64,000 bases of DNA from Nitrosopumilaceae archaeon. Lineage in GTDB: Archaea; Thermoproteota; Nitrososphaeria; Nitrososphaerales; Nitrosopumilaceae. This document shows positions 1,469-47,855 of the stretch, one piece after another. Every line of letters begins with the position of its first letter. Within the stretch, counting starts at the first letter, position 1. The notes beneath the pieces are model-generated. The model saw only the letters and a list, made by a program, of their open reading frames with translations. It did not search any database and was not told the origin of the DNA. The stretch is from positions 2,048,001 to 2,112,000 of the forward strand of contig OZ242365.1 in NCBI GenBank assembly GCA_965208905.1. Direction: 5' to 3'. A program made the translations under genes and the position numbers.

Positions 1469-3107
1469 GGGAATTATATACAAAAGTACAGCAGTCTTAA
1501 CCGCCTACTTTTCGTTGGCTTTCACCATTCAGGGTGCGTGTGTTTGGCATGCGCTTTGGAAGCGCGGTCTTGACTACCTGCCAGTCTCCTACAACCGGTG
1601 GTGGCGTGCGGTTGCGTAGGCTTATTCGGTCCCTCAAGTCCGTCCCGGACTTGATGCATAAACGACTTGCCTTTTGGGCGCGTCTTGAGTTTGGTTTTAT
1701 GTAATCATAATTGTTGTTATAGTTGTTGTCTGGACTGTACATGATGTTGAATGCGCCGTTATAGTCGGCATGACATACAGTGCCGCAGTTCCGACACTTG
1801 AACTTTCTATCATGGTTCCACCTCTCATGTACAATTTCATTATTGTGCCAAATCTTGAATCCACCGTAGCGTTCGGTGTCCTTACTACAACATGCGCCAC
1901 ACCGTTTGGACGTATTGTAGGGTTTAACCTCTCTGATTTCCGTATTATGCTCAGGGGCTTTCTTTGTACACCAATCACGGACTTCACCGGCCTTACTCTC
2001 TTTTAGTGTGCGGTTCTTGCCTTTGGCGCAGTTGCCCCCCTTGCGGGTAAGATTCACCAAGTTGAGGTTCTCAAATTTTACCAAATCGCAGTCCACGCAC
2101 AGTTCCTTGCAAAAGTGTCTGTACTTATTCAACTGCCAGTTGTATAGCGTTTTGCGCTGCCGTTTCATGCTGTCATTTATCTTATTCCATCTGTTGCTGT
2201 TATGTGTACATCTGTCACGTTCGGACTGGAGTTTTCTAATGTGCTTGCCTATTTCATCATTGTACAATTTAAGAAGGCGTGTAGTACCGTCCGACAGTGC
2301 CACATATGCTGTCAACTTGCCTATGTCAACACCCGCCGTCAACCCTGTTATCTTCCTGTCCGGGATGTACTTTTGTATTGTAAGGTGTAACTCAAACTGG
2401 CGGTGACCGCGCCGTCTATCCGCATCACTCGTTATGTCAACAATCTTGTGTGACACTACGGTTTTGATGTTGGGTAGCCGCCCCTTCGTGATGCTGAACT
2501 GTGTGTCTGACTTGGGAAATGTGACCGTGTTGTGTTTGATTCGCTTTGGTGCACCAAGGAAGAATATCGGATATGTTTTACCGTCTTTGAGATGCGTACA
2601 GTCCTTCATTTCAATACCTGCCAGGATTGCACCGCGAATTAAGTGTAGTGGTGCGCATTCCTTGGGGTCGGTATTATCCCATTCTGCCATCATGCTTTTG
2701 GCAACCGTAACGCATGTCAATGCGCTTCGGGGATACGGACTAGGACTACTGCTGGCAGTGAACTGCACGTTCAAGTTACGACACATAACACCTAGTTCAA
2801 CCCACATACGGCTTTCGGCCTCCAGACTTTCAACATATGAGGTGATTATACTATTTGTCTTTAGGCGGTATTTGCGGGTTCTATAGATTATACTCTTCTT
2901 GGTCTGCATATCACATATTATGATATTTCAGATATAAAGTTACATACCTCATATTTACTATATGATATGTATAGTACAGTCCCGACCACATGCCAGTCTG
3001 TCAAATTACGGCGCTGTTATACGGCATGCCAAACACACGCACCCTGAATGGCGAAAACCAACGAAAAATAGGCGGTTAAGCCTACTGTACTTTTGTAAGT
3101 AATTCCC
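1469..3107 (-). mobile_element. TIR-bounded non-autonomous element 1 carrying tnpB (84-bp imperfect TIRs)
   Basis: 1469-1552 and the reverse complement of 3024-3107 match at 77/84 nt, both starting GGGAATTA; no TSD seen. Confidence 0.85.
1497..2909 (-). CDS. tnpB: TnpB-family RNA-guided endonuclease, 470 aa
   Basis: RuvC-I GVDIG, RuvC-II FENL, zinc finger CGAC...CRNC, RuvC-III HADYNGA; about 80-aa C-terminal tail. Confidence 0.9.
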   Translation of the reverse strand: MQTKKSIIYRTRKYRLKTNSIITSYVESLEAESRMWVELGVMCRNLNVQFTASSSPSPYPRSALTCVTVAKSMMAEWDNTDPKECAPLHLIRGAILAGIEMKDCTHLKDGKTYPIFFLGAPKRIKHNTVTFPKSDTQFSITKGRLPNIKTVVSHKIVDITSDADRRRGHRQFELHLTIQKYIPDRKITGLTAGVDIGKLTAYVALSDGTTRLLKLYNDEIGKHIRKLQSERDRCTHNSNRWNKINDSMKRQRKTLYNWQLNKYRHFCKELCVDCDLVKFENLNLVNLTRKGGNCAKGKNRTLKESKAGEVRDWCTKKAPEHNTEIREVKPYNTSKRCGACCSKDTERYGGFKIWHNNEIVHERWNHDRKFKCRNCGTVCHADYNGAFNIMYSPDNNYNNNYDYIKPNSRRAQKASRLCIKSGTDLRDRISLRNRTPPPVVGDWQVVKTALPKRMPNTRTLNGESQRKVGG

Positions 3108-3155
3108 TAATTTCCCTATGAGAGATTTATTACACATTGTTTGTTTGTAAGTTAC

Positions 3156-3554
3156 ATGATATTCAAAAAAAAGGAGATAAAACGACATGTTACCATAAAA
3201 AGAAAGGCCATGGACGGCATCATATCATACTGCAAAATCAATCATCCTAACGAGGCCATACTGATACTCAAGGGCAAATCTAAAAGGGGAGCGATACTAG
3301 TTGAAGATCTGGTCATTCCTCCGTTCAGTCATTCAGGCCCAACATTTGCTGGATTTCCCCACTCTTTCCTGCCTTTTGATTTGAGTTACGTGGGAACCGT
3401 TCATTCACACCCGGGAGGTTCTGCAGAACCGTCTGTCACTGATTTGAATAATTTTTTTGGTCTTGTATCGGTGATAATAAAATGGCCATACAACGACGAA
3501 GATATATTTGCATGGGATAGTAAAGGCGGTTCAATAGAGTTAACCATCGAGTAA
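3156..3554 (+). CDS. JAB/MPN (JAMM) metalloprotease
   Basis: HPNE...VHSHPGGSAEPSVTD JAMM motif; ATG 3156 preferred over TTG 3141. Confidence 0.88.
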   Translation: MIFKKKEIKRHVTIKRKAMDGIISYCKINHPNEAILILKGKSKRGAILVEDLVIPPFSHSGPTFAGFPHSFLPFDLSYVGTVHSHPGGSAEPSVTDLNNFFGLVSVIIKWPYNDEDIFAWDSKGGSIELTIE

Positions 3555-4018
3555 TGTAATGCGTGCGCATCAACGCCAGCTGTTTAGCTGGCGGCGTGTA
3601 CAGGACCCGATCAGAGGCCGCCCTGGAGCAAATGGGCGGTGGATGTAATGCTGTACTGCTAGTCAAAATAGGGATGGCCAAACACAAAAAGCACCAGATG
3701 GAGAGGGCCGGGTACAACAGCAGGTGAATTGTAGAAATAGTGATATCTTTGCTTCAGAGGCTGCTGAGCGAGGCGCTCCGGGCGGTAAAGCCTGAGTGTA
3801 TAATAATGGAAATTGCTACAAAAATAGCCATGTATAATAAAACCCGGGACGTTATGCGCAAGGCCAGAGGGTGAGGCGTATGTGATACCGCCCCGGGATT
3901 CATATGGCGGCCGGACTGTCCAGATTACGTTAGGTCACAAATTATGAAACGCTGTCTGTGCCAATCCCAGATGTAGTTGGAGTGGACCCCGTTCTTTAGA
4001 ACCGATTTTCGCAACATT

Positions 4019-4876
4019 TTATTCACACTTTTTACCTCCTGCATATATGCTATCCCTTGAGTTCTGCCAATATTGTTCGGCGAACTCAGAAGGTGCCAAG
4101 TACTGTATAGAAGAGTGAATTCTGTTATGATTGTAATCTTCAAATGCAGCGAGTATTGTCTCTTTGGCTTCCTGAATGTTCGCAAACTCACGGGGCCAGA
4201 CGTACTCCTTTTTGAGTGTCTTGTGGAAGGATTCGATATGTCCGTTTTGTTCGGGAGTGTTGATGTAGATGTATTCAAGAGTAATTCCCAACGCTGCCAT
4301 TGATGATCTAAATTCCCGACTAGTGTATTGAGTTCCATTATCGACTCTCAAAGTCAATCCCGGTAATGTTGGATTGGAGTCGGCTACGGCATTATTTACG
4401 GCCATGATAGCCTCGTGTCGTGTGGCACGACTCTCCAATACAAATGCCAACCATTGCCTGGTAAAGACGTCGATTACATTAAAACAGTAACCCCATCCGT
4501 CTCTACCGCACCAGATGTATGACATGTCCGATTCCCAGAACTGATTTGGAGCCTTTGGTTTTGGAATCTTTTTATTGGTACGTATTATCTCACGCTTGGT
4601 ACGTGATGGTTTACTCCATCCCAGTGCTTTGAATATACGTTTTATTGCCTTGCGGTTGATGGGACGATTCAACTCTCGTGAGGCTTGGGCAGCCATACGT
4701 CTTGTCCCATATGTCGGTCTTTTAGGTGCAATCTTTTGTACAATCTCTAGTACTTCGGGGTCCGATGACACGTTTCTGGGTGTAGGAGCATAATACCATG
4801 CAGTTTTGGAGACTCCGCAAAGAGCGAGTGACCTATTGAGGCCCAACACGTCATGTATGATACGTGCGGCGTTCAT
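4019..4876 (-). CDS. IS3 OrfB (DDE integrase core)
   Basis: YGTRRM, WESDMSY, RVDNGTQY, NGHIESFHKTLKKE; slippery TTTAAAAAAAG near 4897-4907 for -1 frameshifting. Confidence 0.92.
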   Translation of the reverse strand: MNAARIIHDVLGLNRSLALCGVSKTAWYYAPTPRNVSSDPEVLEIVQKIAPKRPTYGTRRMAAQASRELNRPINRKAIKRIFKALGWSKPSRTKREIIRTNKKIPKPKAPNQFWESDMSYIWCGRDGWGYCFNVIDVFTRQWLAFVLESRATRHEAIMAVNNAVADSNPTLPGLTLRVDNGTQYTSREFRSSMAALGITLEYIYINTPEQNGHIESFHKTLKKEYVWPREFANIQEAKETILAAFEDYNHNRIHSSIQYLAPSEFAEQYWQNSRDSIYAGGKKCE

Positions 4877-5187
4877 TCTACCTCGCCCTCCAGCGCTTTT
4901 TTTAAAGCATCATTAGCCACGGCATACTCTCCGATGATTCTCTTAAGTGATGTAATCTCCTTTTTGTGCTTCTTGGCCTGTTTGGAAGCGTTAGAACCCT
5001 CAAACGAGCTGCGTCCGCCATCTGGAAACTTTTCTTTCCAATCGTATACGGTTCGTGGGGCCAAGTTGTGTTCGCGGCATATCTCGGCCATACTGGTCCT
5101 GGGATTGAATGTCTGGAGTACTATGTGGATCTTTTCATCTGTACTCAACTTTGATTTTTTATTTGTCATATGGTGTGTGCCCCCCAA
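4873..5187 (-). CDS. IS3 OrfA (HTH)
   Basis: KIHIVL...AEICREHNLAPRTVYDWK HTH followed by a coiled coil. Confidence 0.9.
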   Translation of the reverse strand: MGGTHHMTNKKSKLSTDEKIHIVLQTFNPRTSMAEICREHNLAPRTVYDWKEKFPDGGRSSFEGSNASKQAKKHKKEITSLKRIIGEYAVANDALKKALEGEVE

Positions 5188-5330
5188 TTGCTAAAGTGTG
5201 CATCGACGATCGGTCTTATTCTAGCGGGGTCCGCGCCAGTAGTCGTGCATCAGTAGAGTTACATGCATTTATCGTTTTTACCGTATGGTGCAGCGATACC
5301 TTATAACGGGGGATGTTTTTGGTTTAAAAC

Positions 5331-6671
5331 ATGAGACAAGTTATGAGCATACGTCAAACTTTAGATGATCAAGTCGATGATTTGAAAGGTAGTCTCTGGC
5401 GTGATTTTGTGCATACGCGCTCCCGAACACTACGACTAGTTGCGAATCTAGAGATGGATGACTTTGTGGTTCAGACAGCCACATATATGAGTCCACCAAA
5501 GTGGCACATTGGGCATGTCTCTTGGCTGTATGAGGTCATAATGAGTAGAGTGGACAAAGAGTACCAGTTTTACTCAAAAGAGTTCTCGGAATACTTGAAC
5601 TCATACTACAATCAATTCGGGGAGCCACACCAAAAAGGAAGGCGAGGAACTGTATCAAGACCCACATTAAATCAAATATTAGACTACTATATGGAGATAA
5701 ATAGTAGGGTTCAGACATTCTTGTCTGAATACGATACAGGTGATAAAGACGTAAAAAGCCTCTTTGAAATGGGCCTAAATCATGAATGTCAACACCAAGA
5801 GTTATTGGTGTATGATCTGCAACATCTGCTGGCAGATGTATATGTACCATTAAAGAAGGTAAGTCCTCCCAGAAGGGCGACTGCAACCCCCTCCATGATA
5901 CCTGTAAGGGGCGGCATGTATAGTCTGGGATATGGCGGTGATCAGTTTTGTTACGATATCGAGTTGCCTGAGCACATTACATATATGGATAATTATTCAT
6001 TGGGAAAATTTCCAGTGACCAATGCAGAGTACATGCAGTTTATGAAAGATGGCGGGTACTCGAAGTTTGAGAATTGGTTGTCAGATGGGTGGAAGGTGGT
6101 TCAAGAGAATGGATGGACCTCGCCAATGTATTGGGAAGAGATAGATGACCAATGGTGTATAGTAGACTTTAGGGGGCGGAGACCCATAAACCCCGCCGAA
6201 CCTGTAGTACACGTGAGTTTTTACGAGGCAGATGCATATGCTAGATGGGCCGGAAAGCGCTTGCCTACAGAAGCAGAATGGGAGAAGGCTGCCTGTTACG
6301 ATCCCACAAGTGATACTAAGAGCATATACCCTTGGGGAGATGAGCCTCCAGATTATACAAAGTGTAATCTGTTGGAGTCAAACATTTGGGGGTGCACCGA
6401 GATAGGCAGCTACCCAGAGGGGGTCAGTCCATACGGGTGTGAGCAGATGATTGGTGATGTTTGGGAGTGGACCTCTTCGGAATTTGTTGGATATAGGGGG
6501 TTTAAGTCTACCTTTCGCGAGTATAACGATAAGTGGTTCACTGGTCAAAAGGTGCTACGAGGAGGCTCATACGGTACCCCCTCCATGTCTATAAGGGGGA
6601 GTTACAGGAATTTCTTCAGATTAGATGAGAGATGGATGTTTGCTGGATTTCGTCTAGCCTCAGATATTTGA
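5331..6671 (+). CDS. egtB: Ergothioneine biosynthesis sulfoxide synthase (DinB_2 plus FGE-sulfatase domains)
   Basis: SPPKWHIGH, HECQHQEL, RLPTEAEWEKAA, GDVWEWTSS, VLRGGS; convergent with egtD. Confidence 0.9.
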   Translation: MRQVMSIRQTLDDQVDDLKGSLWRDFVHTRSRTLRLVANLEMDDFVVQTATYMSPPKWHIGHVSWLYEVIMSRVDKEYQFYSKEFSEYLNSYYNQFGEPHQKGRRGTVSRPTLNQILDYYMEINSRVQTFLSEYDTGDKDVKSLFEMGLNHECQHQELLVYDLQHLLADVYVPLKKVSPPRRATATPSMIPVRGGMYSLGYGGDQFCYDIELPEHITYMDNYSLGKFPVTNAEYMQFMKDGGYSKFENWLSDGWKVVQENGWTSPMYWEEIDDQWCIVDFRGRRPINPAEPVVHVSFYEADAYARWAGKRLPTEAEWEKAACYDPTSDTKSIYPWGDEPPDYTKCNLLESNIWGCTEIGSYPEGVSPYGCEQMIGDVWEWTSSEFVGYRGFKSTFREYNDKWFTGQKVLRGGSYGTPSMSIRGSYRNFFRLDERWMFAGFRLASDI

Positions 6672-6703
6672 TAATATAGTTACATTGAAGTGATATGCAG
6701 CAT

Positions 6704-7708
6704 TTATGTGGACATTAAAGTTACTGAAAATTTTTTGGTAGCATCATGCCAAATCCGTTTAATCTTTAGATTGACACTGTCTGCCATTGTCTGTATATGT
6801 GGTATGGTATATTTTTGTGAGTTTTCAGTATGGATTAACTCGTCTTTTTTTAAATATAATGTGGTATTGGCCCCGGGTATGTCTACACTCTGATCCTTCT
6901 CGGACTTTAGATACATCTCTATTCTTTTTTCACTTTTATTGTATGGGGCGTAGTGTGAAAATTTTGAAACATTAAAATTAGCATTTAATTCACGATTAAG
7001 TCTATGTAATATATTGAGATTAAACCTGGCAGTTACTCCTTGAGTATCGTTGTATGCCGCCTCAAGCGTTGCGACATCTTTGTCCAGGTCCAGACCAAGT
7101 AATAACAGGTCGCCATCTTTCATGGATACTCGTATGGTTCTCAAAAACGAGATGGATTCAGACGCGGACATGTTTCCCAAACTCGAACCTAAAAATATGA
7201 TCAAATTGGGCGAATTAGTCATATGGCGTACTATGGATAGTCCGTGCTCATATGTATCCACAATGCCTGTTATACGCAACTTTGGATAATCATCTAGTAG
7301 GGATCCGGCACCACTCTCCAAGGCATCGGATATGTCAATTGGCACATACTCTGAACCCGCTCCCGCATCTTGCAGTGAATCTAAGACACATCGTGTCTTT
7401 ACAGATGACCCGCTGCCAAGCTCAACCAGACGAAACTGCTCATGTAAATATCTGGATAACTCGTATCGTATGGCGCGCAGAATTGCGGTCTCGGTACGAG
7501 TTTGATAATATTCGGGTAATGAACATATCTCTTCAAATAACTGTGAACCTACATGATCATAAAAGAACATTGGGGGTATGGAGCGAGGCGCATTGCGCAG
7601 TTTTTTTTGCACCGCCTCAGCTAAACTATCTTGCTTAAGGTTGTTTGCTAACCTTGTGTATCTAAAGCGCTCTGATACAATACACTGTAGGTGGTTCAAT
7701 AACACCAA
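6704..7708 (-). CDS. egtD: L-histidine N-alpha-trimethyltransferase
   Basis: FFYDHVGSQLFEEICSLPEYYQTRTE, ELGSGSSVKT, AAYNDTQGVTARFNLN, IHTENSQKY. Confidence 0.92.
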   Translation of the reverse strand: MVLLNHLQCIVSERFRYTRLANNLKQDSLAEAVQKKLRNAPRSIPPMFFYDHVGSQLFEEICSLPEYYQTRTETAILRAIRYELSRYLHEQFRLVELGSGSSVKTRCVLDSLQDAGAGSEYVPIDISDALESGAGSLLDDYPKLRITGIVDTYEHGLSIVRHMTNSPNLIIFLGSSLGNMSASESISFLRTIRVSMKDGDLLLLGLDLDKDVATLEAAYNDTQGVTARFNLNILHRLNRELNANFNVSKFSHYAPYNKSEKRIEMYLKSEKDQSVDIPGANTTLYLKKDELIHTENSQKYTIPHIQTMADSVNLKIKRIWHDATKKFSVTLMST

Positions 7709-8109: not shown

Positions 8110-9264
8110 TTACTCGTAATAGTCTGGACCTATGAGAAACGTTACCAAAACCGTCGCAGATAAATCCTCATCAGGCGTAAATATTGGAGTGGCAATTGAG
8201 GCAAATGCATCAAAGAGGTTGGCAGATATGCGTTCTAGTGGGGCTCCAGAACTGGGATCGACCGTAACATCTTCAACTCCAATTATAGTATGCTGCAATG
8301 GTTTCAACGCAAGATATGCTTGATGTTTGGCGTTTAATACCGCAGTCTCTATTAAACTTTCTTGAATCCTAATTTTGGTATCATCAGACACTGTAAATTG
8401 AACAGACTCTACATTGTTAACACCTGCCTGCACAGCCGTATCCAATATGGCAGCAGTCATATTAATTTGGTCGGTATTTACCATTATGATGTTACGTACA
8501 TTATATCCGGCAAAGGTTTGCCTGTGTTGGCCATCAACATCATAGTGGGTGTCATACTCTGGATGGATGGTGATACGTGATGTGGCAATGTCATCAATTG
8601 GTATACCCAAAGATACAACAGAGTTTACTGCCATGTCTAGCAATTCGGAATTCTCGGCTAAAGCTGCACTGGCAGTAGGCCTGACAGTCTCAACTCCCAT
8701 GGTTATTACGACCCTTTCAGGTTCTACACTGGCTGTTGCCGTGCCAGCCACTGTTATTGTACCGGGCGTAGCATGACCTCCCATGAACGGCATGTCGAAC
8801 ATCATCATATCATAACCGCTCATGAACGGCATGTCGAACATCATCATGTGATCTTTCATGAATGACATCATACCATAGCAGTCTTTGTGCTCGTAGTCTC
8901 CATGCTCGTAGTCTCCATGCTCGTAGTCTCCATGCTCGTAGTCTCCATGCTCGTAGTCTCCATGCTCGTAGTCTCCATCGTCGGTGCGGTTGTAGTTATC
9001 ATACGAATAGTCGGACATTCTGTTCTTGTCTTTATACCCGTACTCTCCAAAGTTATGGTGATATTCAAAACAGTCCTTGAACATCTTGTGCATATTATCA
9101 AATTCGTAATCTTCTGACTCTTCATAAGAGTCATGTTTTTTTGTTTCAGAGTAGTTGTAAGAGTCAACATATCCGGGAAATGCCATTGCAGAGCCAGTGG
9201 CTGCACCAAGTAATACGGCAAGTCCAGTTGTCAATAGAAACGTGGTCAAAAGCAAATTATTCAT
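8110..9264 (-). CDS. Secreted SIMPL (DUF541) domain protein with His/Met-rich repeat N-terminus
   Basis: Signal peptide MNNLLLTT...; (GDYEH)x6; C-terminal SIMPL pattern ITVAGTATASVEPE...AILDTAVQAGVN...AVLNAKHQA. Confidence 0.82.
   Translation of the reverse strand: MNNLLLTTFLLTTGLAVLLGAATGSAMAFPGYVDSYNYSETKKHDSYEESEDYEFDNMHKMFKDCFEYHHNFGEYGYKDKNRMSDYSYDNYNRTDDGDYEHGDYEHGDYEHGDYEHGDYEHGDYEHKDCYGMMSFMKDHMMMFDMPFMSGYDMMMFDMPFMGGHATPGTITVAGTATASVEPERVVITMGVETVRPTASAALAENSELLDMAVNSVVSLGIPIDDIATSRITIHPEYDTHYDVDGQHRQTFAGYNVRNIIMVNTDQINMTAAILDTAVQAGVNNVESVQFTVSDDTKIRIQESLIETAVLNAKHQAYLALKPLQHTIIGVEDVTVDPSSGAPLERISANLFDAFASIATPIFTPDEDLSATVLVTFLIGPDYYE
8782..8847 (+). repeat. 27-bp direct repeat x2 (39-bp period) encoding MMMFDMPFM
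   Basis: CATGAACGGCATGTCGAACATCATCAT at 8782 and 8821. Confidence 0.9.
8888..8977 (+). repeat. 15-bp tandem repeat x6 (TGCTCGTAGTCTCCA), coding GDYEH
   Basis: Six perfect copies read directly. Confidence 0.97.
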
Positions 9265-9399
9265 TGTATAATTATGTTTCAGGCCGCAATTATATCTTGT
9301 GTGTGTGAACGTTACATGAAAAAATATCATGCCTGTAGATACTCATATGCACTTTTAATACACAGTCTGGCCAAATACTCTAGTTTAATCTGATGGGCG

Positions 9400-14428: not shown

Positions 14429-14477
14429 TATACACTTGAAAACACTCTCGATATTTCATTGTTGTCTATAATTTGTC

Positions 14478-15897
14478 GGGAATTATATACCTGGGTAGAC
14501 AAGGCTAGTTCTGGAGGGTACATGTTTATAAAGTATTATGATGTATAAAACTACATGTATCGATCTTATGGCTTCCGCGTAAACCTGACGCGCTCTCAGG
14601 CGCGTCACATATCCAAAATACGGGACTCACAGCGGTTCGTGTACAACTGGGCCGTGGAGCGGCTGCTTACTAACCCCACACTCACTACATATGACCTCTC
14701 CAGAGAGTTCACCAAGGTGAGGCGTTCCGTATCGTGGCTGCAAACAGTGGAGCGCATATACCAAAATACGGCCATCCATCAGGCCCGCACTGCTGCGGAT
14801 GTCTCGAACAAATACGGCAACGGCGAGCTGAGTTTCCGCGCCAGAAAGCGCGATAATAAAAAGGCAGTATCATGTGATGTACAGCCGCGATTTGTGGACA
14901 ACAGGCACGCGTCATTGCCGGGCCTTGGTGTTGTTGAGTTGCCTGAGGAGCAGCCATATCAATTTCCACACAACTGGCTGTATGGCTCAAGGTCTTTCCA
15001 TTTGGTGCAGGTTACACCAAAGTCGTGGGGGCACGTCAAGTCATGTGACCATATCTATCGGCTGCACATAACATATGACGTACCAGTACCCGAACGGCGC
15101 GCCAAGACCGGTGTTGTTGCCGGCATAGACAGGGGGATAACAAATCCAACGGTTGTCTGTAAGACAGACCACAACACTTCGTGTATAATATCGTATGACA
15201 CGGCAACCGCATTCCGCACGAACCGTACATGGAATGATGGTGTGCGCCGTACCATATCACACCACAACAAGCATTCTCATACAACACACAAGATGAAACG
15301 CAAACGAGAAAAGTACAATCGTGGTAATGCGAATGACCGCGAGTATGCGGAGTGGCTTCTAGCCAAGAAGATATGCGAGGGCGTGGATGTAATATATGTC
15401 GAACAGCTCAACCTTGAGGCCATGAGCAGGCGCGGTGGTAGGCACAAGAAAGGTCTGAACAGGGGAATGAGGTTTATTCGGCATTATGCAATATTGCGAA
15501 AGATCCGCACCATCGCAGAGCGGCTGGGCATCCGTGTAGTAGAGGTAAGTCCAAAGCACACAAGCCAGGAGTGCAGTGTGTGCGGCTACACAAACAAGGA
15601 GAACCGAGACGGGGAGACATTCAAGTGTCTCAAATGTGACCACGTGGCAAACGCCGACGGCAATGCGTCGGTGAATATGATTCAACGGGGGACCGGTATG
15701 AAGGTTCCCGCGGGGGAAGGAATGGCCCTCGAAAGGCGTGAAATGGGCCGGACCCGGAAGCCACCTGTTTGTGCAGTTCCGGACGCCAGACGGCGGCGTG
15801 AGAATCAAGCGTGCAATCGACCCAAAACATCAAGCGTCATGAAGCACCTGGGAATGTACGCGTATGTTACGCGTGCATACCCAGGTATATAATTCCC
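14478..15897 (+). mobile_element. TIR-bounded non-autonomous element 2 carrying tnpB; perfect 20-bp TIR, 8-bp TSD
   Basis: GGGAATTATATACCTGGGTA (14478-14497) and its exact reverse complement (15878-15897); AATTTGTC at 14470-14477 and 15898-15905. Confidence 0.95.
14555..15892 (+). CDS. tnpB: TnpB-family RNA-guided endonuclease, 445 aa
   Basis: RFVYNWA, GIDRG, YVEQL, TSQECSVCG...FKCLKC, NADGNAS; TTTATAAA box at 14525; stop codon lies inside the right TIR. Confidence 0.93.
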   Translation: MYRSYGFRVNLTRSQARHISKIRDSQRFVYNWAVERLLTNPTLTTYDLSREFTKVRRSVSWLQTVERIYQNTAIHQARTAADVSNKYGNGELSFRARKRDNKKAVSCDVQPRFVDNRHASLPGLGVVELPEEQPYQFPHNWLYGSRSFHLVQVTPKSWGHVKSCDHIYRLHITYDVPVPERRAKTGVVAGIDRGITNPTVVCKTDHNTSCIISYDTATAFRTNRTWNDGVRRTISHHNKHSHTTHKMKRKREKYNRGNANDREYAEWLLAKKICEGVDVIYVEQLNLEAMSRRGGRHKKGLNRGMRFIRHYAILRKIRTIAERLGIRVVEVSPKHTSQECSVCGYTNKENRDGETFKCLKCDHVANADGNASVNMIQRGTGMKVPAGEGMALERREMGRTRKPPVCAVPDARRRRENQACNRPKTSSVMKHLGMYAYVTRAYPGI

Positions 15898-16116
15898 AAT
15901 TTGTCTGACTTGACTCTGTCCTACACGCACAAGTCATGGGAAAACGTATTGTACCACCCTAAAAATGAGTTTGTAATGTGTCTTGGTTAATACATTTGAT
16001 AATTTGGCGCTCAAAGCATATGAGCAGCAGAGCGTACAAGATTGTGGCCTGCAGGTATTGGGATTATAGCATTGCAGATACACATGGAAAAACCAAACCT
16101 CTGTATCAATATATAA

Positions 16117-39369: not shown

Positions 39370-39370
39370 A

Positions 39371-40675: not shown

Positions 40676-40736
40676 CTAAATATGTCATCGTATTATGCCT
40701 AAAATGTTAAATCAGGTCTCTTATTGTATAGATATT

Positions 40737-40857: not shown

Positions 40858-40879
40858 TAAAAATATAAAAAAAATAGTG

Positions 40880-41254: not shown

Positions 41255-41300
41255 ATTACTTCATTATAATGTAGGGTATAGTACATATTTAAGGGTTTAA

Positions 41301-41843
41301 CTATTGTTTGAGGGAATTATATACAAAAGTACACAGCCTCGGCTGTACACTCATGCCTTTTCTGACGACTTCGTTGTATGGAGTGGAGCATAGAAGGTGT
41401 TGGCTTGTAGTCCTCCTTGTGCCCCGGCCGTCTTTGCGGCGGTATGGCGCATGGTTAGAGTTGTCATCCATGACCCTTCTACATGCGACGGAGGCATCCT
41501 GTATGGCGCCCCTGCCAAACACCATAGGTAAGTCAGATACCCAATCCGACTCGGCGCGCCATACAGTCAACTTTTTGTACATGCCGTACTTTAATGCCCT
41601 CTTTGATGGCCCAAAATCATATGTATGGTAGTCATCATCCAGCATACCTGATGTAAAACTCAGCTTGCCCGGCAGTTTGAAGGGCTGCAGGATGTCCACT
41701 ACCACCCTCTCCATATATTCTCCACCAAACAAATACTCTGATACGGCGCGGTTATACACATATCTTGACGCATGATTCGTGCGGTGCGCCCACTCCACGA
41801 ACCGCACATCCCTCCGTAGCGGTACCTTGACTATCCGTATCAT
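41301..41843 (-). pseudogene. TnpB N-terminal fragment, RuvC domain lost
   Basis: MIRIVKVPL...SRYVYNRAV...LTVWRAESDW...AIQDA...PYRRK; no RuvC motifs. Confidence 0.72.
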
Positions 41844-41952
41844 GATATGTAATACGGTATGCTGGTATTTAAGGGGAGTTGCTGTGGACGCGATCCGTGG
41901 TTCAGGCATTAACTCTCAGAATCGGGGTTGTGTACTTTTGTATATAATTCTC
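41312..41952 (-). mobile_element. TIR-bounded element 4 carrying an internally deleted tnpB
   Basis: TIRs GGGAATTATATACAAAAGTACACA and GAGAATTATATACAAAAGTACACA; flanks TTGTTTGA / TTGTGTAA (6/8, possibly a decayed TSD). Confidence 0.85.
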
Positions 41953-42019
41953 TTGTGTAACTATTGACTTACCATCGTATGAAATAATTATATAAGAATT
42001 TCATGTTGCAACTCTTCCC

Positions 42020-43063
42020 TGTATTATGTCGAAATTATTTCGCCTAGTCATCGGTGTCCCTCTCCATCCATTCTAAGTCACTCTTCCTGACATCATCTGG
42101 TACTTTTTTGTTGTGAAATGCCTGTAGCGGGGTCTCGCCATTGTTTATGTCTAAAGACCAGTGCAGTCGCACCTCGTTGTAGTACGCGACAAACTCCGCT
42201 AGGCTGCCAAAATGACATAGTTCTTCTTCCAAGGTGCGGTGGAACCGTTCAAGCTTGCCGTTTGTTTGTGGGTGGTAGGGGCGGGTGTTGATCAACTCAA
42301 TACCCCGGTCAAGCAGCTCTGCCTCAAATATAGTGGGGGTCCATGATTTTGCAGGAATCTTTCTTCTCACACCCACAAAGCACGATCCGTTGTCGGAGAG
42401 TATGGTGGCCGGGGTTCCAAACTCAACAATGCTATTTTGCAGGACTGTTACCGCGTTCTCGGATGTGGCCCCCTTGAATATCATGGCTCCAACCACACAT
42501 CTTGACGCATCATCAAGATATGTGATTAATTGGTAGCCTTGAAAACGTGGATCTTTCATCGCATGCCAGTCCGTATGCCACATCGCATTGGAGTATCTGC
42601 GCTCATAGCGTATCCATTTACGCCTGCGCGATTTTGCTGCAGATAGAGTGACCATATTGTTTTCTTTCATGATTGTGTATACCGTTTTTTCACTTATTTG
42701 TATGCCCTTGTGATTTAAGTACTTGGTGATCCTTGTGACGCCTGCTGGCATTATACGATGTGCTGCTAGTACGACGTTGGTTTGCTCCTCGGTGGGAGGA
42801 ATCTTGGGTCTGCCTGGCATTTGTAGTGTGGGAATCTTGCCCGTTGCACGATACATTGCCCAGAGTTGTTGTACGCGTCTCTGGCTAATCTTCATCTCTG
42901 TAGCAATGTGTGATGTACTACTACCTTTCCTGCATTGTCGAATGATATAATCTATCTGCTTCTGTGTCAGATTGACTCTCATGGGTTTGCGTGATCTATA
43001 TAGACTAAAATATTCTTTGGTTGGCAGTCTAAAGTTAGGGCGAACTAATTTCCGCACAATAGA
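42020..43063 (-). mobile_element. IS481-family element with 16-bp direct repeat
   Basis: 25-bp TIRs (20/25 match); TGTTGCAACTCTTCCC at 42004-42019 and 43064-43079. Confidence 0.92.
42044..42982 (-). CDS. IS481-family transposase
   Basis: HTH, WHTDWH, YLDDASR, LSDNGS, PQTNGKLERFH. Confidence 0.92.
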   Translation of the reverse strand: MRVNLTQKQIDYIIRQCRKGSSTSHIATEMKISQRRVQQLWAMYRATGKIPTLQMPGRPKIPPTEEQTNVVLAAHRIMPAGVTRITKYLNHKGIQISEKTVYTIMKENNMVTLSAAKSRRRKWIRYERRYSNAMWHTDWHAMKDPRFQGYQLITYLDDASRCVVGAMIFKGATSENAVTVLQNSIVEFGTPATILSDNGSCFVGVRRKIPAKSWTPTIFEAELLDRGIELINTRPYHPQTNGKLERFHRTLEEELCHFGSLAEFVAYYNEVRLHWSLDINNGETPLQAFHNKKVPDDVRKSDLEWMERDTDD

Positions 43064-43307
43064 TGTTGCAACTCTTCCCACAAGTTTGGATGATTAACAA
43101 GTAATATTAATGATCTTGAACATTAACGACAATTATAGTGGGTGTAAGGTATAACAAGTCACGAAAACCAAGGACAAGTAAGAGTGTACGTACATCAAAA
43201 CCACAAACAGATACCGTATACTGTTGTTTTCACTCCACGCACCTAATGTATGATGCCCACACTCCATCCTGTAAGTATCGTTAATGGAACATCGCATATG
43301 GTGCAAC

Positions 43308-44321
43308 TCAACAAAAGTTTTGTGTTGCATACATCTTTCCATCTTCACTAAACGCCACACCAACACCCGTCCTATCATAAGCGGGCTCTAGTATGTTTGC
43401 GCGATGACCAGGACTGCTCATCCAGCTGGTAACCACGTCCCAGGCTATGTCCCGAGTAGTCTCATTATGTTCAATACCACTAACCCAAGATATATTCTCA
43501 GCAAGCCCGTAGGTGTAGTAGGAACCATGGTCTCTGGTGCAGTCATAGCCGGCACGCATCACCCGGTCTGTTGGGTCAAGGCCTTCGGGGGTGACATGTC
43601 TGAAATATTCCCGGTCAGCCATATCTTGACTATGCTCTTTAGCAATCTCTTCCACCAAAGCAATGCGCTGAAGTTTATCTACTCCCATCGACTCGCGCTC
43701 TGTATTTGTGAACAGGTATATGTATAATTCAATATCCTTAACAAACTCTTCTTCATCTGGCGATATCATTGGGCCGACTATGTAATCATCTATCGATGAT
43801 ATATCGAATTCGATATCGTCTGAATCGTTCTGCATCAACTCTTCATCTGTGTTCGCTCTGTCCGGTGTTGGGGGGCTCTCATCTATAGGACGTATGTATG
43901 GTCCAAATGCATCTGGTAGTAGGGTATAGACTGCGTCGGTGACAGTTCCAGGAACCTCTATTACATCCGCAAACGTCTCAACCACAGTATCAGTTACAGC
44001 CCCCGGAACTTCGACCACATCCGCAAACGTCTCAACTACAGTATCAGTTACAGCCCCCGGAACTTCGACCACATCCGCAAACGTCTCAACTACAGTATCA
44101 GTTACAGATCCGGCCATCTCTTCTGTATCTGATACAACATCTGTTATTGTCCCAGTTATGGCATCTGTGGCGTCCTCTGTAACATTGGTGGCCACACTGG
44201 ATGCGGTTCTGACGCCTGAAATTATCTCGGGTACTGCATATGTAAAAAATGACCACAACCCAACACCTATAACGCCTACAATTACGGCTAAAATTATTGG
44301 CTTCTTGGGCATATAATACAT
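43308..44321 (-). CDS. Membrane-anchored CAP/SCP domain protein with repeat stalk
   Basis: TNTER, HSQDMADREYFRH, AENI, WMSSPGHRANIL, GVGV...ATQNFC. Confidence 0.9.
   Translation of the reverse strand: MYYMPKKPIILAVIVGVIGVGLWSFFTYAVPEIISGVRTASSVATNVTEDATDAITGTITDVVSDTEEMAGSVTDTVVETFADVVEVPGAVTDTVVETFADVVEVPGAVTDTVVETFADVIEVPGTVTDAVYTLLPDAFGPYIRPIDESPPTPDRANTDEELMQNDSDDIEFDISSIDDYIVGPMISPDEEEFVKDIELYIYLFTNTERESMGVDKLQRIALVEEIAKEHSQDMADREYFRHVTPEGLDPTDRVMRAGYDCTRDHGSYYTYGLAENISWVSGIEHNETTRDIAWDVVTSWMSSPGHRANILEPAYDRTGVGVAFSEDGKMYATQNFC
43939..44107 (+). repeat. 54-bp tandem repeat, about 3 copies (PGAVTDTVVETFADVVEV)
   Basis: ACATCCGCAAACGTCTCAAC at 43963, 44017 and 44071. Confidence 0.93.
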
Positions 44322-44472
44322 TATATGTCATGCTCTATTTGTTTTACCCATGCCGGTTTCTTGTAAACCCGGTTGATGGTGATTTCTGCATGATGCTAAG
44401 CTAGCATACGATATCATACTAGATATATCTGCGATATTTGCACTTAAACCACTACCTTTCAAGCCTGCTAAT

Positions 44473-46830
44473 CTAGTTGCTACGACATTGCTGGCACGTC
44501 TCGGGTAGCGCCTGACCGCCGTCTTGGCAGAGTTGTATCAGCACATCATCGGGACACTCAAATCCAAATACTTTTTTTATTTCAGTGGGAGTGTTGCCTG
44601 TAATGCCACAGGCTGAGCACGTATGTGAGATATCGACTTCTTCCTCTTCTTCCTCTTCAATCTCTTCCTCTTGGTCTTTCCACACCTTCCAGTACTCTCG
44701 GTATAATCTCCAACCCATGGAGGCACTGAGGGGAGCATACTTTGAATGGTTCAGCTGAAAGTTGTCGTCTATATCTACAATAAGCATATCTTCTGTACCA
44801 CCAATCTTTGTGCCTCTCATGCCTCTACCTACCATCTGTGTGTACAAAAGGGCACTTTTAACCGGCCTGCCTACAAAGACACAGTCCACACCCGGAGCAT
44901 CAAAACCTGTGGTAAGTACGCCAAAGTTACAGAGTACCTCAACGTCACCCTCTCGAAACTCGTGTATAGCGGTTATTCTAGAATCCATATCCATGGCAGA
45001 ATCAATATATCTTGTATTGGTGTTGTACATTGCCTTGAGAGCTATGGCAATCTTACGGGAATGCTCCACACTACATCCAAAGAAGAGTATCTTCTTTCGG
45101 CCTATCTCTCTTAATTGGTTTATGGTCTTTAGGATTAGTGTATTACGATCAAAATTAGATCCAATCTGGTTGAGCGTCTTTGCTTGAAATTCACCATACA
45201 TCTCAATATCAGAGATATCCTTCATGGTGAGATCTATAGCTTCATGAGATACCACCACCTTGTGGTATACATCACAAAGTATTTCCCGCTGTATCAGTTT
45301 CCCGTATAGGTCTTTTTGCCCCTCTTTTGGGTTAATTGTTCTGGGGTCTACTCGCCCATATATGTCGATTAATGAAACAGCCACGCCCACATTACCATCG
45401 TTGTCGGTAACAGTCAACTCTATCTCGTATCTTCCGGGCTTTGTGAATTGGTGAAATACGTTCTGTCCTGTATATGTCCACTCCTTGTTGTCGTCCGAGT
45501 GTATCATCCAATTGTACTTTGTGATGAAACCTTCAAAGTCGTATGATTTAGATCCCAATATTCTAATTACATCGTCTGTATATGCCGCCGACGGGCAGTC
45601 TATAAGTGCATGTGGTTTGATATTAGCAGAAGATTTCAAGTATGATATGGAAGGAAAGTGTACTCCGTTGTACCATCGATGCAGACGTTGAGTCTCGGTA
45701 TCTCCGCCCCCCCGAAATGGTGTCGCTGTCAGACCCAGCAGTATTATGCCCTTTTCAGAGATCTCTTTTTTACGATTGTCCCAGTTGAAACCCATCTTTC
45801 TTAGCACTGCTGAGTATGAGGGCGCTATTGAGTGGTGCGCCTCATCCACAATTATACATGATACAGAGTTGCCAAGATTTTCCAGCTCCCGAGGTTTGTT
45901 CAGATTGGCGCTATACAAAGACTGTATTGATGCCACAATGATGCCCCGCTCATCTAACAGGTCCTCTATATCTAGTGTTGGAAGGGCGTTATCTCTACCC
46001 CAAAACTTGTAAAGTCGCATGACCGTACCCTGGGCCCCCATTGATTTGAAGACATCCTTGAATGTACTGCGCGCCTGCTCGCAGAGCTCGTGCGACTGCG
46101 CAATCCATAGTATAAATCGAGAGTCGCGCTGCTGTGAGTTCTTTGAGGGTTTGCCATCGTTAAGCCATTCAATCAAAGTTTCGGTGATCATGCGAGTCTT
46201 TCCAGAACCGGTAGGTACTGCTATCAGTTTTCTTTTGACCTCTCTCTTCTGTTCGCCCTCAAGCTCTGTACCTTCCAGTATGTTACGCACGTACCTTCCT
46301 GTCGAGTATTGATAGTCGTATAATGGATTGATTTGAATGTGCGGTTCCACCGTCTCTATGGATGGCGGCTCTTCGGCGCGCTCCTTTTCAGCCACAGATG
46401 CAGGGAGATCAAATATCTCGGCTAACTTTAAACACCATTTGTGTATGGGGCGCATATTGATGACATCGTTCATGTATTTGATGGAACCCTTGGGAGCGAC
46501 GTCTGATACTGCCTTTAGTAAGCTATCTTCAGTAAACAGGCCTTTGTTTATGCCCGTAACTATGATTAATGTAAGAAATGTACGACGTGTCTCTGGATCA
46601 TTTCCAATGGTTCTTAGAAATCTGGGCCCGACCAAGTCATACAGTACTTCGGCCATACTATCTTGGGTCACCTCAAGTTCTCCACCCTTTTGTATCTGGA
46701 GAAGTACATCTAAGCCCATGCTCAGCTCGGATATGACCTCTACTATCTCCTCTAACGTCCACCACATCTTGAATTTTTCGATACATGCAGTCTTTGCGGT
46801 TCGTGCCGCTAACGTTCTTGTCTCTTCCAA
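44473..46830 (-). CDS. SF2 (ResIII-like) DEAH helicase with inserted PKD domain and C-terminal zinc ribbon
   Basis: PTGSGKT, DEAHH, LTATP, LTTGFDAP, QMVGRGMR; PKD-like segment; CSAC...CQQC. Confidence 0.88.
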   Translation of the reverse strand: MEETRTLAARTAKTACIEKFKMWWTLEEIVEVISELSMGLDVLLQIQKGGELEVTQDSMAEVLYDLVGPRFLRTIGNDPETRRTFLTLIIVTGINKGLFTEDSLLKAVSDVAPKGSIKYMNDVINMRPIHKWCLKLAEIFDLPASVAEKERAEEPPSIETVEPHIQINPLYDYQYSTGRYVRNILEGTELEGEQKREVKRKLIAVPTGSGKTRMITETLIEWLNDGKPSKNSQQRDSRFILWIAQSHELCEQARSTFKDVFKSMGAQGTVMRLYKFWGRDNALPTLDIEDLLDERGIIVASIQSLYSANLNKPRELENLGNSVSCIIVDEAHHSIAPSYSAVLRKMGFNWDNRKKEISEKGIILLGLTATPFRGGGDTETQRLHRWYNGVHFPSISYLKSSANIKPHALIDCPSAAYTDDVIRILGSKSYDFEGFITKYNWMIHSDDNKEWTYTGQNVFHQFTKPGRYEIELTVTDNDGNVGVAVSLIDIYGRVDPRTINPKEGQKDLYGKLIQREILCDVYHKVVVSHEAIDLTMKDISDIEMYGEFQAKTLNQIGSNFDRNTLILKTINQLREIGRKKILFFGCSVEHSRKIAIALKAMYNTNTRYIDSAMDMDSRITAIHEFREGDVEVLCNFGVLTTGFDAPGVDCVFVGRPVKSALLYTQMVGRGMRGTKIGGTEDMLIVDIDDNFQLNHSKYAPLSASMGWRLYREYWKVWKDQEEEIEEEEEEEVDISHTCSACGITGNTPTEIKKVFGFECPDDVLIQLCQDGGQALPETCQQCRSN

Positions 46831-46868
46831 TTTGCAGATTATATTAATCTGTATCTTATAGGCTTATC

Positions 46869-47826
46869 GGGAAATTGGAACTGTTAAGTTATAGGTACCT
46901 TAGACCTAGACCTAAACCAGCCTGCCGTACGGCAGATGTTGGCGAATTGCCATTCAGAGGAGTTCCTGAAAGATGTACTTTGTTGGTTGGGCAAAGCAGC
47001 CCTACCTTTGGACAACCTGTACCGGCCATCACGTCGTTAACACTTGGGGGAGGTATGCAAGTGCCAAGATGTATCCTTCCTCTCAAGACCATTCCGGCCT
47101 TGTTGTACAGCGCGTAAACGGCTTGCGCGCGTTTAGACCACCGTACAGTACGAAATGTGAAAAGTATGTTGAACGCGGCATTGACATCCGCATGCATCAG
47201 AACACCGCACTCATGACACCTGAACTGACTGCTTTTGCGCCATGTGTTTGTGCTGCCGTATACACAGCACCGCTGTGATGTATATTTCTGGTCTATTTCC
47301 ATGTACTCTGTATTGTGTTGCAAAGCCTGTTGCGCCAGCAAGGCCCGCGCCTCACCACACTTGCTTTGTCGCATCTTCCTATTCTTGGCTTTCTGACCGG
47401 GGCCCTTAGTCGTCATTGTACGGAGGTTCATTCCCTCCATGATGATTTTGTCGCACTGCACGAACAGCTTTTTGGCAAACTTGCGCAGTTTGTCTTTCTG
47501 CCTATTTCCCACCTTTTTGTATATACTTTGCAGTTGCGCATGCAATGTACACCACTTGTGGGAGTGGAGTTTGCAGTGAGACATCTTCTTTTGAATCCGC
47601 GCGATGTTCCGTATGGTGTCCTGCTCGCGCAGTGTAAGCATATCAATTGTACCGTCCGATTTTCCAACAACAAGCGTTGCTTGCCGCCCATGTCAATTCC
47701 CGCATGTATGCCGGTTGCTACACGGTCCGGGACATCCTCGCGTATTGTGACGTGTAGTTCAAACTGCCTCTCTTTATCTGTGTTGTTTGACAGGTTCTGG
47801 GAAATCAACGGGACATGACATGTAGT
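46869..47826 (-). pseudogene. Frameshifted, 5'-truncated tnpB (element 3) keeping one GGGAAATT end
   Basis: RQFELHVTI..GIDMG (47428-47808 frame), then IMEGM..TSQRC..HADVNAA (46889-47641 frame); homologous to element 1 TnpB; GGGAAATTGG at 46869. Confidence 0.85.
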
Positions 47827-47855
47827 GGGAAATTAGGGACATAAAAAATGAGGGA

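Follow-up and report, generated by a model that had tools for sequence, protein, structure and literature searches.

TnpB-only elements with inverted repeats, 8-bp target duplications and IS1595-type ends in a Nitrosopumilaceae archaeon

The window analysed here is a stretch of 64,000 nucleotides from the genome (G000) of a sponge-associated ammonia-oxidising archaeon of the Nitrosopumilaceae, available as a single contig and 99.6% complete. TnpB-domain matches number 75 in the whole genome; within the window, the TnpB domains PF07282 and PF01385 are present in the ORFs at 1497-2909(-), 14555-15892(+) and 46889-47641(-). The sequence GGGAATTATATAC occurs exactly at 1469(+), 14478(+), 15885(-) and 41312(+), and near-matches lie at 41940(-) with one mismatch and at 3095(-) with two. 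These six matches compare with 1.82 expected, a count of six being reached in 1/100 shuffles. An earlier note, made from the letters of this DNA alone, had described four tnpB genes with related termini, three of them in elements with inverted repeats at both ends. All three pairs of inverted repeats are present (20-100 nt, 86-100% identity). As for the four genes, elements 1 and 2 correspond to the description, whereas element 3 proved to be a remnant and element 4 to carry ends of another family.

Element 1 (1469..3107, minus strand, 1639 bp) belongs to family C and carries only tnpB between GGGAATTATATAC-type termini. Its inverted repeat (1469-1568 against 3008-3107) extends over 100 nt with 86% identity. 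The tnpB gene (1497..2909, minus strand) encodes 470 aa and matches PF07282 with 54.5 bits; its product scores 88 bits against NF040570, under the cut-off of 100, and keeps the RuvC D/E/D residues and the zinc finger. A second family C copy (G000:C1:1455264-1456902) is identical to element 1 at 1639/1639 positions, and the insertion sites of both copies are empty in the congener G005. Element 1 has no TSD as now placed, its flanking 8-mers agreeing at 2/8 positions, which we attribute to an exchange of flanks with the identical second copy.

Element 2 (14478..15897, plus strand, 1420 bp) is the TnpB-only representative of family B. The inverted-repeat search returned the perfect 20-nt TIR already reported for it (14478-14497 against 15878-15897, 100% identity), and the perfect 8-bp TSD was likewise verified, with AATTTGTC on either side at 14470..14477 and 15898..15905. 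Its tnpB gene (14555..15892, plus strand, 445 aa) has its stop codon inside the right TIR and matches PF07282 (64.2 bits), PF01385 and PF12323. The protein scores 124 bits against NF040570, over the cut-off of 100, and can be aligned to Cas12f/TnpB structures, including Cas12f 7l48, with D/E/D intact. A copy with 99.9% identity is located at G000:C1:352058-353477. The congener G005 has the exact empty site, ...TTGTCTAT AATTTGTC TGACTCG..., with the target present once. Furthermore, one contig in each of the DNA runs X12 and X13 lacks element 2, joining 14478 to 15907 and skipping 1428 nt, i.e. 1420 + 8. These empty sites directly show insertion with an 8-bp TSD: in G005, X12 and X13 the boundaries are exactly GGG...CCC and the 8-bp target is single.

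Element 3 (41312..41952, minus strand, 641 bp) had been listed as a further tnpB carrier. It is instead an internal-deletion remnant of family A, with ends identical to family A ends and a 202-aa ORF that matched no Pfam family. Its inverted repeat (41311-41341 against 41923-41953) spans 31 nt with 90% identity, and the adjoining 8-mers agree at 6/8 positions only. No clean empty site of element 3 is found in G005, because this congener carries a different IS at that spot. At full length, family A elements measure ~1.47 kb, carry TnpB (117 bits against NF040570, over the cut-off of 100) and are present in at least 15 copies in the host genome. As these copies are 77-98% identical to one another, most of them did not move recently. 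A search of genome contigs with family A TnpB returned four related loci, all in one Cenarchaeum MAG.

Element 4 (46878..47781, minus strand) is a TnpB element truncated at its 5' side; it falls in the GGnnCTGT-end group and has its ORF at 46889..47641 (minus strand). It had been credited with a GGGAAATT end at 46869. That GGGAAATT is flanking DNA, and the real 3' terminus is GGAACTGTTAAG at 46878, the only end left, the other having been lost by truncation. Judged by this terminus, element 4 belongs to a separate end family (GGAACTGT, IS6-like). Over window positions 46916-47781 it has 82% nucleotide identity (blastn) to the F5 copies, which bear GGAGCTGTCAAATC-type ends and have perfect 8-bp TSDs in 2/3 cases. 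The truncated end is abutted by a 108-bp repeat (47792..47900) found with 100% identity at eight other places in the genome. The neighbouring gene (47856..49109, minus strand) encodes an IS6-family-like DDE transposase of 417 aa, with 55 bits for PF13610 and 94.9 bits against NF033587, under the cut-off of 125. No clear TIR that would define the ends of its element was found for this gene. Several other TnpB families of the host would share with element 4 a second, IS6-like type of end (GG tips, CTGT motif), again with 8-bp TSDs. Members of the IS6 family make 8-bp duplications, and their terminal repeats have GG tips and contain a cTGTt motif (Varani et al. 2021, PMC7986276); tips and a motif of this kind are seen on the end of element 4 and on TnpB families F3-F6, and TSDs split between copies are another point of likeness (PMC7986276). 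Unlike IS6 members, the TnpB elements have no IS6 transposase gene, and it is only through the similarity of their ends that they are linked to this family.

The 8-bp duplication is not restricted to element 2. Among the 23 F1 TnpB end pairs of the host genome, the TSD agrees at 8/8 positions in 14, at 7/8 in two and at 6/8 in two, and five pairs, with 5/8 or less, have no TSD. Three B444 copies also have 8/8. In a family-blind scan, a perfect TSD together with a TIR of at least 11/14 was detected at 27/74 TnpB loci versus 0/74 decoy pairings. Perfect TSDs were also observed in relatives (8/12 in G015, 4/5 in G006 and 10/11 in G009, G007 and G002 together), and five other species have elements that agree with these in ends, in TSD length and in carrying TnpB.

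IS200/IS605 and IS607 elements are the usual carriers of TnpB, and proteins of the elements described here do score on the IS200_TnpB and IS607_TnpB models, far under the cut-offs. The elements might accordingly be ordinary derivatives of these groups (IS1341 type) that depend on a Y1 or serine TnpA for movement and bear repeats by coincidence. They do resemble the IS1341 group, i.e. TnpB-only IS200/IS605, in their length of ~1.4-1.6 kb, in tnpB as the only gene and in the many diverged copies per archaeal genome. However, IS1341 elements lack TIRs, do not duplicate their target, are inserted 3' of a motif of 4-5 nt and need a Y1 TnpA, and the elements tested here agree with them on none of these four points. 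The TIRs of 20-100 nt and the 8-bp TSDs are features not found in the IS200/IS605 and IS607 families as these are described in PMC13565253 and PMC6188088, the decoys gave no combination of TSD and TIR, and the exact empty site holds one target copy. That the elements encode no TnpA, as stated earlier, extends to the whole 99.6%-complete genome, in which neither Y1 (HUH) TnpA (PF01797) nor serine-recombinase TnpA (PF00239) had a single match, and there are consequently no Y1 or serine TnpA elements on which identical ends could recur. In the positive controls, PF01797 matched in 6/14 genomes and PF00239 in 12/14. We therefore regard an IS200/IS605 or IS607 origin as already contradicted and next to impossible.

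A matching DDE partner is found in the IS1595 family. The 320-323-aa ORFs in question are IS1595 transposases (138-140 bits for PF12762; 173 bits for NF033547 versus a cut-off of 75), and each of the four intact IS1595-family transposase elements in the host genome has GGGAATTATA termini and a perfect 8-bp TSD. Two of the four (G000:C1:675271-677401 and 1211856-1213986) are 100% identical and therefore moved recently. The TnpB elements have 13/13 or 12/13 terminal bases in common with two of the IS1595 elements and 10 with the other two. Sharing is limited to these bases, and subterminal sequences differ. The terminal bases are shared by the IS1595 elements of G005 too, the IS1595 ends in G005, G001 and G004 being GGGAATTAT. 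In ISfinder, the ISNwi1 subgroup of IS1595 has ends 'ggnnatTAT'. Across 31 genomes, the exact 13-mer occurs in 10 and PF12762 in 12, the latter including every one of the former. Weaker IS1595-like genes were also considered as partners and rejected, as their ends differ.

Only tnpB lies inside the window elements, PF12762 being absent within them, and no combined element with both an IS1595 transposase and tnpB was found among nine transposase or MTase elements examined; the TnpB elements are therefore non-autonomous. Dozens of them are present in the host genome, versus four intact IS1595 transposase elements. They resemble the IS1595 family as described for ISApl4, which makes A/T-rich 8-bp repeats (PMC12561309): the family has short TIRs, 8-bp and often A/T-rich duplications, an N-terminal zinc-ribbon DDE transposase and frequent passenger genes. 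The window elements differ from it in having no transposase, and their passenger is an RNA-guided nuclease gene with its stop codon in the TIR, while that of the IS1595 elements here is a DNA methylase-HNH gene. We consider it probable that elements 1-3 are non-autonomous IS1595 (DDE)-type IS with tnpB as sole cargo, most likely mobilised in trans by IS1595 transposases, and we infer this mobilisation from the shared ends. According to this model, elements 1-3 would have retained the ~13-bp terminus GGGAATTATATAC that IS1595 transposase elements in this genome, and elsewhere in the genus, also bear, would insert by the 8-bp staggered cut typical of the IS1595 family, and would be moved by IS1595 transposases acting in trans. 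Points against this model are the shortness of the shared terminus, the lack of a combined element among those examined, the small number of intact transposase copies, the divergence of most family A copies, the five F1 pairs with no TSD and the TnpB families, described next, for which no partner was found. The claim of the earlier note that TIR plus TSD marks DDE-type insertion is thus supported by the empty alleles, the TSDs, the absence of TnpA and the matching DDE partner, and it withstood the refutation checks named in that note.

For some TnpB families, no such partner was found. Families with GGTTCCTCCCGC... ends likewise make 8-bp TSDs, no transposase partner was detected among all 47 such ends, and the only non-TnpB GGTTCCTCCCGC-end pair (G000:C1:926302-927837) has no long ORF. 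Similarly, no matched transposase element was found for families F2 and F8. Some other enzyme could therefore serve all families. A different DDE enzyme would then move the TnpB elements, either one of the IS6-like transposases, with 14 PF13610 matches in the genome, or an unrecognised one, and the 13-mer shared with IS1595 would stem from convergence or from dependence on the same foreign enzyme. The 8-bp repeats and GG tips of the IS6 family (PMC7986276) would suit such a scenario, as would the IS6-like ends of other TnpB families, such as GGAGCTGTCAAATC and GGAACTGTCCCATC, which can be set against GGAACTGGTGCATC on 3602-bp IS6-like elements. However, the GGGAATTATA terminus is present on 4/4 intact IS1595 elements of the host and on those of G005, G001 and G004, it is absent from the tips of those IS6-like elements for which the ends were read, and none of the 31 genomes has the 13-mer without PF12762, for which reasons we think that a different enzyme is unlikely.

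It might also be supposed that TnpB, whose nuclease shares the RNase-H fold with DDE enzymes, moves the elements itself and that these are autonomous. TnpB is dispensable for transposition and acts as an RNA-guided nuclease (PMC13565253), although older annotations label it a transposase and mobility without an intact TnpA was described in Haloquadratum (PMC3119063). In the elements studied here, tnpB is the sole gene between the ends, near-identical copies (99.7-100% identity) indicate recent movement, and several families have no identifiable partner. Yet the same 13-nt termini are shared by three unrelated TnpB lineages with 18-28% identity, and they occur also on elements and MITEs without any tnpB, all with 8-bp TSDs, which makes TnpB a very improbable mover. 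Assuming mobilisation in trans by IS1595 transposases, the same ends on three unrelated lineages imply that these gained them by repeated capture or end-swapping.

Reviews treat prokaryotic pairings of TnpB with DDE transposases as rare. Six DDE-associated TnpB branches (DDE-1 to DDE-6) with inverted terminal repeats, together with solo TnpBs with matching ends, were described by Altae-Tran et al. (2023, PMC10691335), and a 2026 review gives ISL2, IS630 and IS1031 as DDE partners of TnpB (PMC13565253). The novelty raised in the earlier note thus does not extend to the general principle, DDE-linked TnpBs and solo copies moved in trans being on record (PMC10691335), but IS1595 and IS6 partners, 8-bp TSDs and a genome without any TnpA appear undescribed, going by the main text of that paper. 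As in DDE-1 to DDE-6, a prokaryotic TnpB lies within inverted terminal repeats with the tnpB 3' end near the element end, and the ends of solo TnpBs resemble those of transposase-bearing elements, suggesting trans mobilisation. Unlike in these branches, the putative partners are IS1595 and, for other families, IS6-like, neither of them so named in the main text of PMC10691335; transposase and tnpB are never within one element among those examined; 8-bp TSDs and empty sites are documented; and the host is a Nitrosopumilaceae archaeon in which many TnpB-domain matches go with no TnpA. Fanzor TIR/TSD transposons, including the SfAV Fanzor1 element, likewise comprise non-autonomous elements with no gene other than that of a TnpB-type nuclease, and their guide RNA should extend through the TIR and reach the TSD (PMC3627910, PMC10711439). 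The elements described here differ in their prokaryotic host and IS families, in much smaller proteins and in the lack of nuclear adaptations, and would parallel, in a prokaryote, the capture of Fanzor by eukaryotic transposons.

The catalytic D/E/D residues and the CxxC...CxxC zinc finger are kept in 13/13 aligned TnpB representatives, including elements 1 and 2. Codon identity is 0.908 at positions 1+2 versus 0.764 at position 3, a pattern indicating that the TnpBs are under purifying selection. From the intact RuvC triad and this selection, they are probably active RNA-guided nucleases. The tnpB gene always ends 5-28 nt from one TIR, so that a guide RNA read out of this tnpB-proximal end would start on the TSD and run on into flanking sequence. 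In family A, the sense 3' 220 nt, where a guide (omega) RNA would be expected, reach -44.5 kcal/mol in their consensus fold. The antisense strand gives -25.9, and the values of four internal windows are -7 to -16. Conservation at synonymous sites is also higher in these 220 nt. An Rfam scan of six element loci with E up to 1 gave no match. Parts of family B tnpB are represented in Logan contigs of a single study's metatranscriptome libraries, such contigs showing neither strand, ends nor RNA origin.

Finally, we examined the base adjoining the TSD. Towards the 5' end of tnpB, the TSD is preceded by G in 30/34 elements of families A and C and of the G015 type (three species), and C occupies the mirrored position on the opposite side in 10/34 of them. 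In TnpB lineage B, which has the same termini, G precedes the TSD in 5/17 elements, and in elements with the same termini but no tnpB on 9/26 sides (Fisher p ~1e-5). In another TnpB family, the one with GGTTCC ends, TA precedes the TSD in 11/12 elements. The G would represent a TAM-like, side-specific and TnpB-lineage-specific base. Its assignment to a 9-bp TSD or to the TIR was rejected, since the right-hand TSD copy directly abuts CCC.

By the accepted view, TnpB restores IS605 or IS607 copies that have been excised without a scar. It is not obvious that such a role extends to transposons whose movement leaves double-strand breaks and duplicates the target. Tentatively, from the base counts above and with chances that we place somewhat below even, the TnpBs may be more than passengers and constitute an RNA-guided homing or retention system fitted to a target-duplicating transposon. 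In such a system, the guide would start with the 8-bp TSD, the motif required by the nuclease (TAM) would immediately precede the TSD towards the 5' end of tnpB, and only correctly oriented, motif-adjacent insertions would persist. If true, this would be the first natural evidence of TnpB selection on DDE-type insertions in prokaryotes. With dozens of intact TnpBs in several lineages, no TnpA, defined ends, exact empty sites, recently moved copies and identifiable candidate transposases (IS1595, plus IS6-like ones for other families), the genus is a clean natural system in which to ask how an RNA-guided nuclease serves a DDE transposon. The nucleases are compact (445-470 aa), and the insertion sites reveal where their guide would start and what their candidate TAM is.

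The 13-mer GGGAATTATATAC occurs exactly at 1469(+), 14478(+), 15885(-) and 41312(+) of the window, and with one and two mismatches at 41940(-) and 3095(-), respectively. These six matches compare with 1.82 expected, and six were attained in 1 of 100 shuffles. They delimit elements 1 (1469-3107), 2 (14478-15897) and 3 (41312-41952), on which the terminal inverted repeats (TIRs) proposed in the earlier note are indeed present, with longer arms than were noted there (100 nt at 86% identity, 20 nt at 100% and 31 nt at 90%, respectively). The perfect 8-bp target-site duplication (TSD) of element 2 was also found, AATTTGTC standing on either flank. As for the four tnpB genes proposed, Pfam TnpB domains were detected in ORFs 1497-2909(-), 14555-15892(+) and 46889-47641(-), i.e. 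in elements 1, 2 and 4, but not in the 202-aa ORF of element 3, which has no Pfam match. Element 3 (641 bp) derives by deletion from a full-length element of TnpB family A. An rve-type (IS3/IS481-like) integrase-core transposase gene, 42044-43081(-), immediately adjoins it; relatives of this gene are present in many copies in the congener G005.

The genome under study (G000), in which the window occupies C1:2048001-2112000, is a single contig of 2.21 Mb (45.6% G+C, 99.6% complete). It contains 40 exact occurrences of GGGAATTATATAC, 21 forward and 19 reverse, and none of the reversed control pattern. The TnpB TNB domain gave 75 matches, while Y1 TnpA and serine recombinase gave none across the genome, in searches that produced matches in control genomes. 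Family A comprises 15 full copies of about 1.47 kb (mutual identity 77-98%) encoding TnpBs of 450-470 aa. Element 2, of family B, shares 99.9% identity with the copy at 352058-353477, and element 1, of family C, is identical over 1639/1639 positions to a second copy at G000:C1:1455264-1456902. Pairwise identity among the TnpBs of the three families is 18-28%, and the family C protein is nearest (36-38%) to TnpBs bearing quite different ends, so that the ends do not track the protein tree. One family B copy (G000:C1:1098872-1110533), with the perfect TSD TTGGCACA, has been broken up by an insertion of about 10 kb, in which an IS6-like transposase gene and a 987-aa ORF are found.

Among the 23 TnpB-bearing pairs of GGGAATTATATAC-type termini in G000, the TSD matched at 8/8 positions in 14, at 7/8 in two, at 6/8 in two (one of them element 3) and at 5/8 or fewer in five. 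The sub-lineage B444, with ends GGGACTTATCC and GGGAATTATCC, showed 8/8 matches in three copies. A family-blind scan, which required a TIR of at least 11/14 immediately bordered by a perfect 8-bp repeat, detected both features at 27/74 TnpB loci vs. 0/74 decoy pairings. In other species, perfect TSDs were present on 4/5 family-A-like elements of G006, and a pair with a perfect TSD at 10/11 family-B-like loci of G009, G007 and G002 (in a scan requiring at least 7/8). In G015, of a different genus, elements of 1.8-2.2 kb with GGGAATTATATAC encode TnpBs of 565-636 aa, and eight of the 12 elements examined had perfect TSDs, one matched at 7/8 and three at 5/8 or fewer.

Empty alleles, the check suggested in the earlier note, were found for element 2. 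G005, whose flanks are 95-98% identical to those of G000, reads ...TTGTTGTCTAT AATTTGTC TGACTCGAC... at this site, with a single target copy and no element, placing the element boundaries exactly at GGG and CCC. The same exact empty site appears in DNA runs X12 and X13 (two studies), each with a 10.4-kb contig omitting 1428 nt (1420 + 8). Element 1 as it stands has no TSD. In G005, the sequence to its left runs into the sequence to the right of the second copy across a single AATTTGGT, and the sequence to its right runs into that to the left of the second copy across a single TAATTTCC. This crosswise continuity indicates that both family C sites are empty in G005 and that the identical copies swapped flanks by recombination, implying an IS-mediated rearrangement between G000 and G005. 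The two copies lie about 594 kb apart in direct orientation, which requires more than one rearrangement event. The target TAATTTCC is itself part of another element, where it forms the last 8 bp of an inverted repeat. G005 has a different IS where element 3 lies in G000, indicating independent insertions into the same few bases in the two species; this IS (1.26 kb, within G005:C1:440500-442400) ends in GGCCTTGTCCAAAAA and shows a 9-bp duplication, ACTACTGAC. We regard the element structure and DDE-type insertion as established.

A candidate partner was found in four G000 elements, two of 2.7-2.8 kb and two identical ones of 2131 bp, encoding IS1595-family transposases of 320-323 aa (PF12762, 138-140 bits; NF033547, 173 bits, cut-off 75). 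All four carry GGGAATTATA termini, two with 13 or 12 and two with 10 of the 13 bases, and all have perfect 8-bp TSDs; A/T-rich 8-bp repeats are reported for an IS1595-family IS (PMC12561309). In G005, IS1595 elements likewise combine GGGAATTATATAC ends with perfect TSDs; in G001 and G004 their ends are GGGAATTATCG. The 13-mer GGGAATTATATAC was present in 10 of 31 genomes of the order and PF12762 in 12, including all 10 with the 13-mer; since related genomes are not independent and both features occur within the family only in genus g1 and G015, this co-occurrence represents two genera rather than 10 events. None of nine IS1595 elements examined contained tnpB. A role of IS1595 as partner of the TnpB elements is inferred, and well supported. 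Many IS1595 elements contain a DNA methylase gene; an N6/N4 methylase is the usual passenger in this genus (G000:C1:1043578-1046414 and loci L069, L071 and L072), fused to an HNH nuclease in one case and alone in the 1.8-kb element L072.

Element 4 (46878-47781) shares 82% identity with members of a family ending in GGAGCTGTCAAATC. Its terminus is GGAACTGTTAAG at 46878, and GGGAAATT at 46869, earlier taken for its end, is therefore flanking DNA. Its 5' part is missing beyond about 47781, beside a 108-bp multi-copy repeat. This repeat (47792-47900), probably a MITE, abuts the truncated element, overlaps the 3' end of an IS6-like gene and is 100% identical at eight other genome places, some of them inverted pairs about 170 bp apart. 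The group of element 4, with ends TGGGCTGTGACG, TGAGCTGGTAAC, GGAGCTGTCAAATC and GGAACTGTCCCATC, also has 8-bp TSDs, and its ends match the GG tips, cTGTt motif and 8-bp repeats given for the IS6 family in PMC7986276. The 3602-bp IS6-like elements of G000 end in GGAACTGGTGCATC; two of them (G000:C1:1337692-1341293 and 1851328-1854929) are identical, with ends of about 50 nt, and share a split TSD: GTCCGTTG lies to the left of one element and to the right of the other, a pattern that either cointegrate formation of the IS6 type or recombination would produce. Two further TnpB families, of 518-569 aa (G000:C1:239554-241169 and 11 similar; 8-bp TSDs in 8/12) and 472-498 aa (G000:C1:1677879-1679392 and six similar; TSDs in about 5/7), have ends GGTTCCTCCCGCAA(A/G)G with a small hairpin, and one pair shares 99.7% identity. 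GGTTCCTCCCGCAA ends were not found on any transposase element in G000, and no partner of these two families was detected.

The RuvC D, E and D residues and a zinc finger were present in 13/13 TnpB representatives. Codon-position identity in family A (0.908 at positions 1+2 vs. 0.764 at position 3) shows purifying selection on tnpB. The distance of the gene end from one TIR is 5 nt in families A and B, where the stop codon lies inside the TIR, and 28 nt in family C. Third-position identity rises to 0.82-0.89 across the last 70 codons of family A, and the sense 3' 220 nt have a consensus fold of -44.5 kcal/mol, vs. -25.9 antisense and -7 to -16 in four internal windows. Such folding and conservation would be compatible with a putative guide-RNA scaffold.

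When each element is read in the direction of tnpB, the 5'-side base immediately preceding the TSD is G in 30/34 elements (family A 13/15, family C 2/2, G015 11/12, G006 4/5), and the mirrored 3'-side base is C in 10/34. Among elements with the same termini, G was found in 5/17 of lineage B (0/7 in G000, 5/10 in relatives) and on 9/26 sides of tnpB-less elements (Fisher tests on the flank-base comparisons, p of about 4e-5, 1e-6 and 2e-5). In the GGTTCC-end family, TA occupies -2/-1 in 11/12 elements, with a one-base shift in the twelfth. If the TSD forms the start of the guide, the pre-TSD position in the empty site would be the location of the TAM, the motif needed by the nuclease; at the occupied junction the sequence is ...TCCC. 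Alternatively, this side-specific base might reflect an asymmetric preference of subtype-specific transposases.

IS200/IS605 and IS607 elements have neither TIRs nor TSDs according to PMC13565253 and PMC6188088, and the same is stated for haloarchaeal IS1341-type elements in PMC3119063. The principle of DDE-linked TnpB is already known: the DDE-6 TnpB branch of Altae-Tran et al. is IS630 (PMC10691335), and a 2026 review, which terms such pairings rare, lists ISL2, IS630 and IS1031 partners (PMC13565253). Fanzor elements offer a eukaryotic parallel (PMC3627910, PMC10711439). 'IS1595' is absent from the main text of PMC10691335, and no literature was found on a TnpB-IS1595 pairing (judged by title and abstract), nor on TnpB in Thaumarchaeota insertion sequences or in Nitrosopumil*; among papers matching any two of TnpB, 'IS6 family' and omegaRNA, the term 'IS6 family' was absent from the matches listed (10 of 33). 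The novelty lies in the identity of the partner families, in the replacement of TnpA-dependent carriers throughout the genome and in a flank signal resembling a TAM.

The window also encodes a 785-aa helicase (ResIII/DEAD and Helicase_C) at 44473-46830(-), whose two lobes are separated by an inserted PKD domain. ORF 8110-9330(-) contains seven tandem 15-nt units (8865-8999), and three copies of a separate 54-nt repeat are present at 43936-44107.
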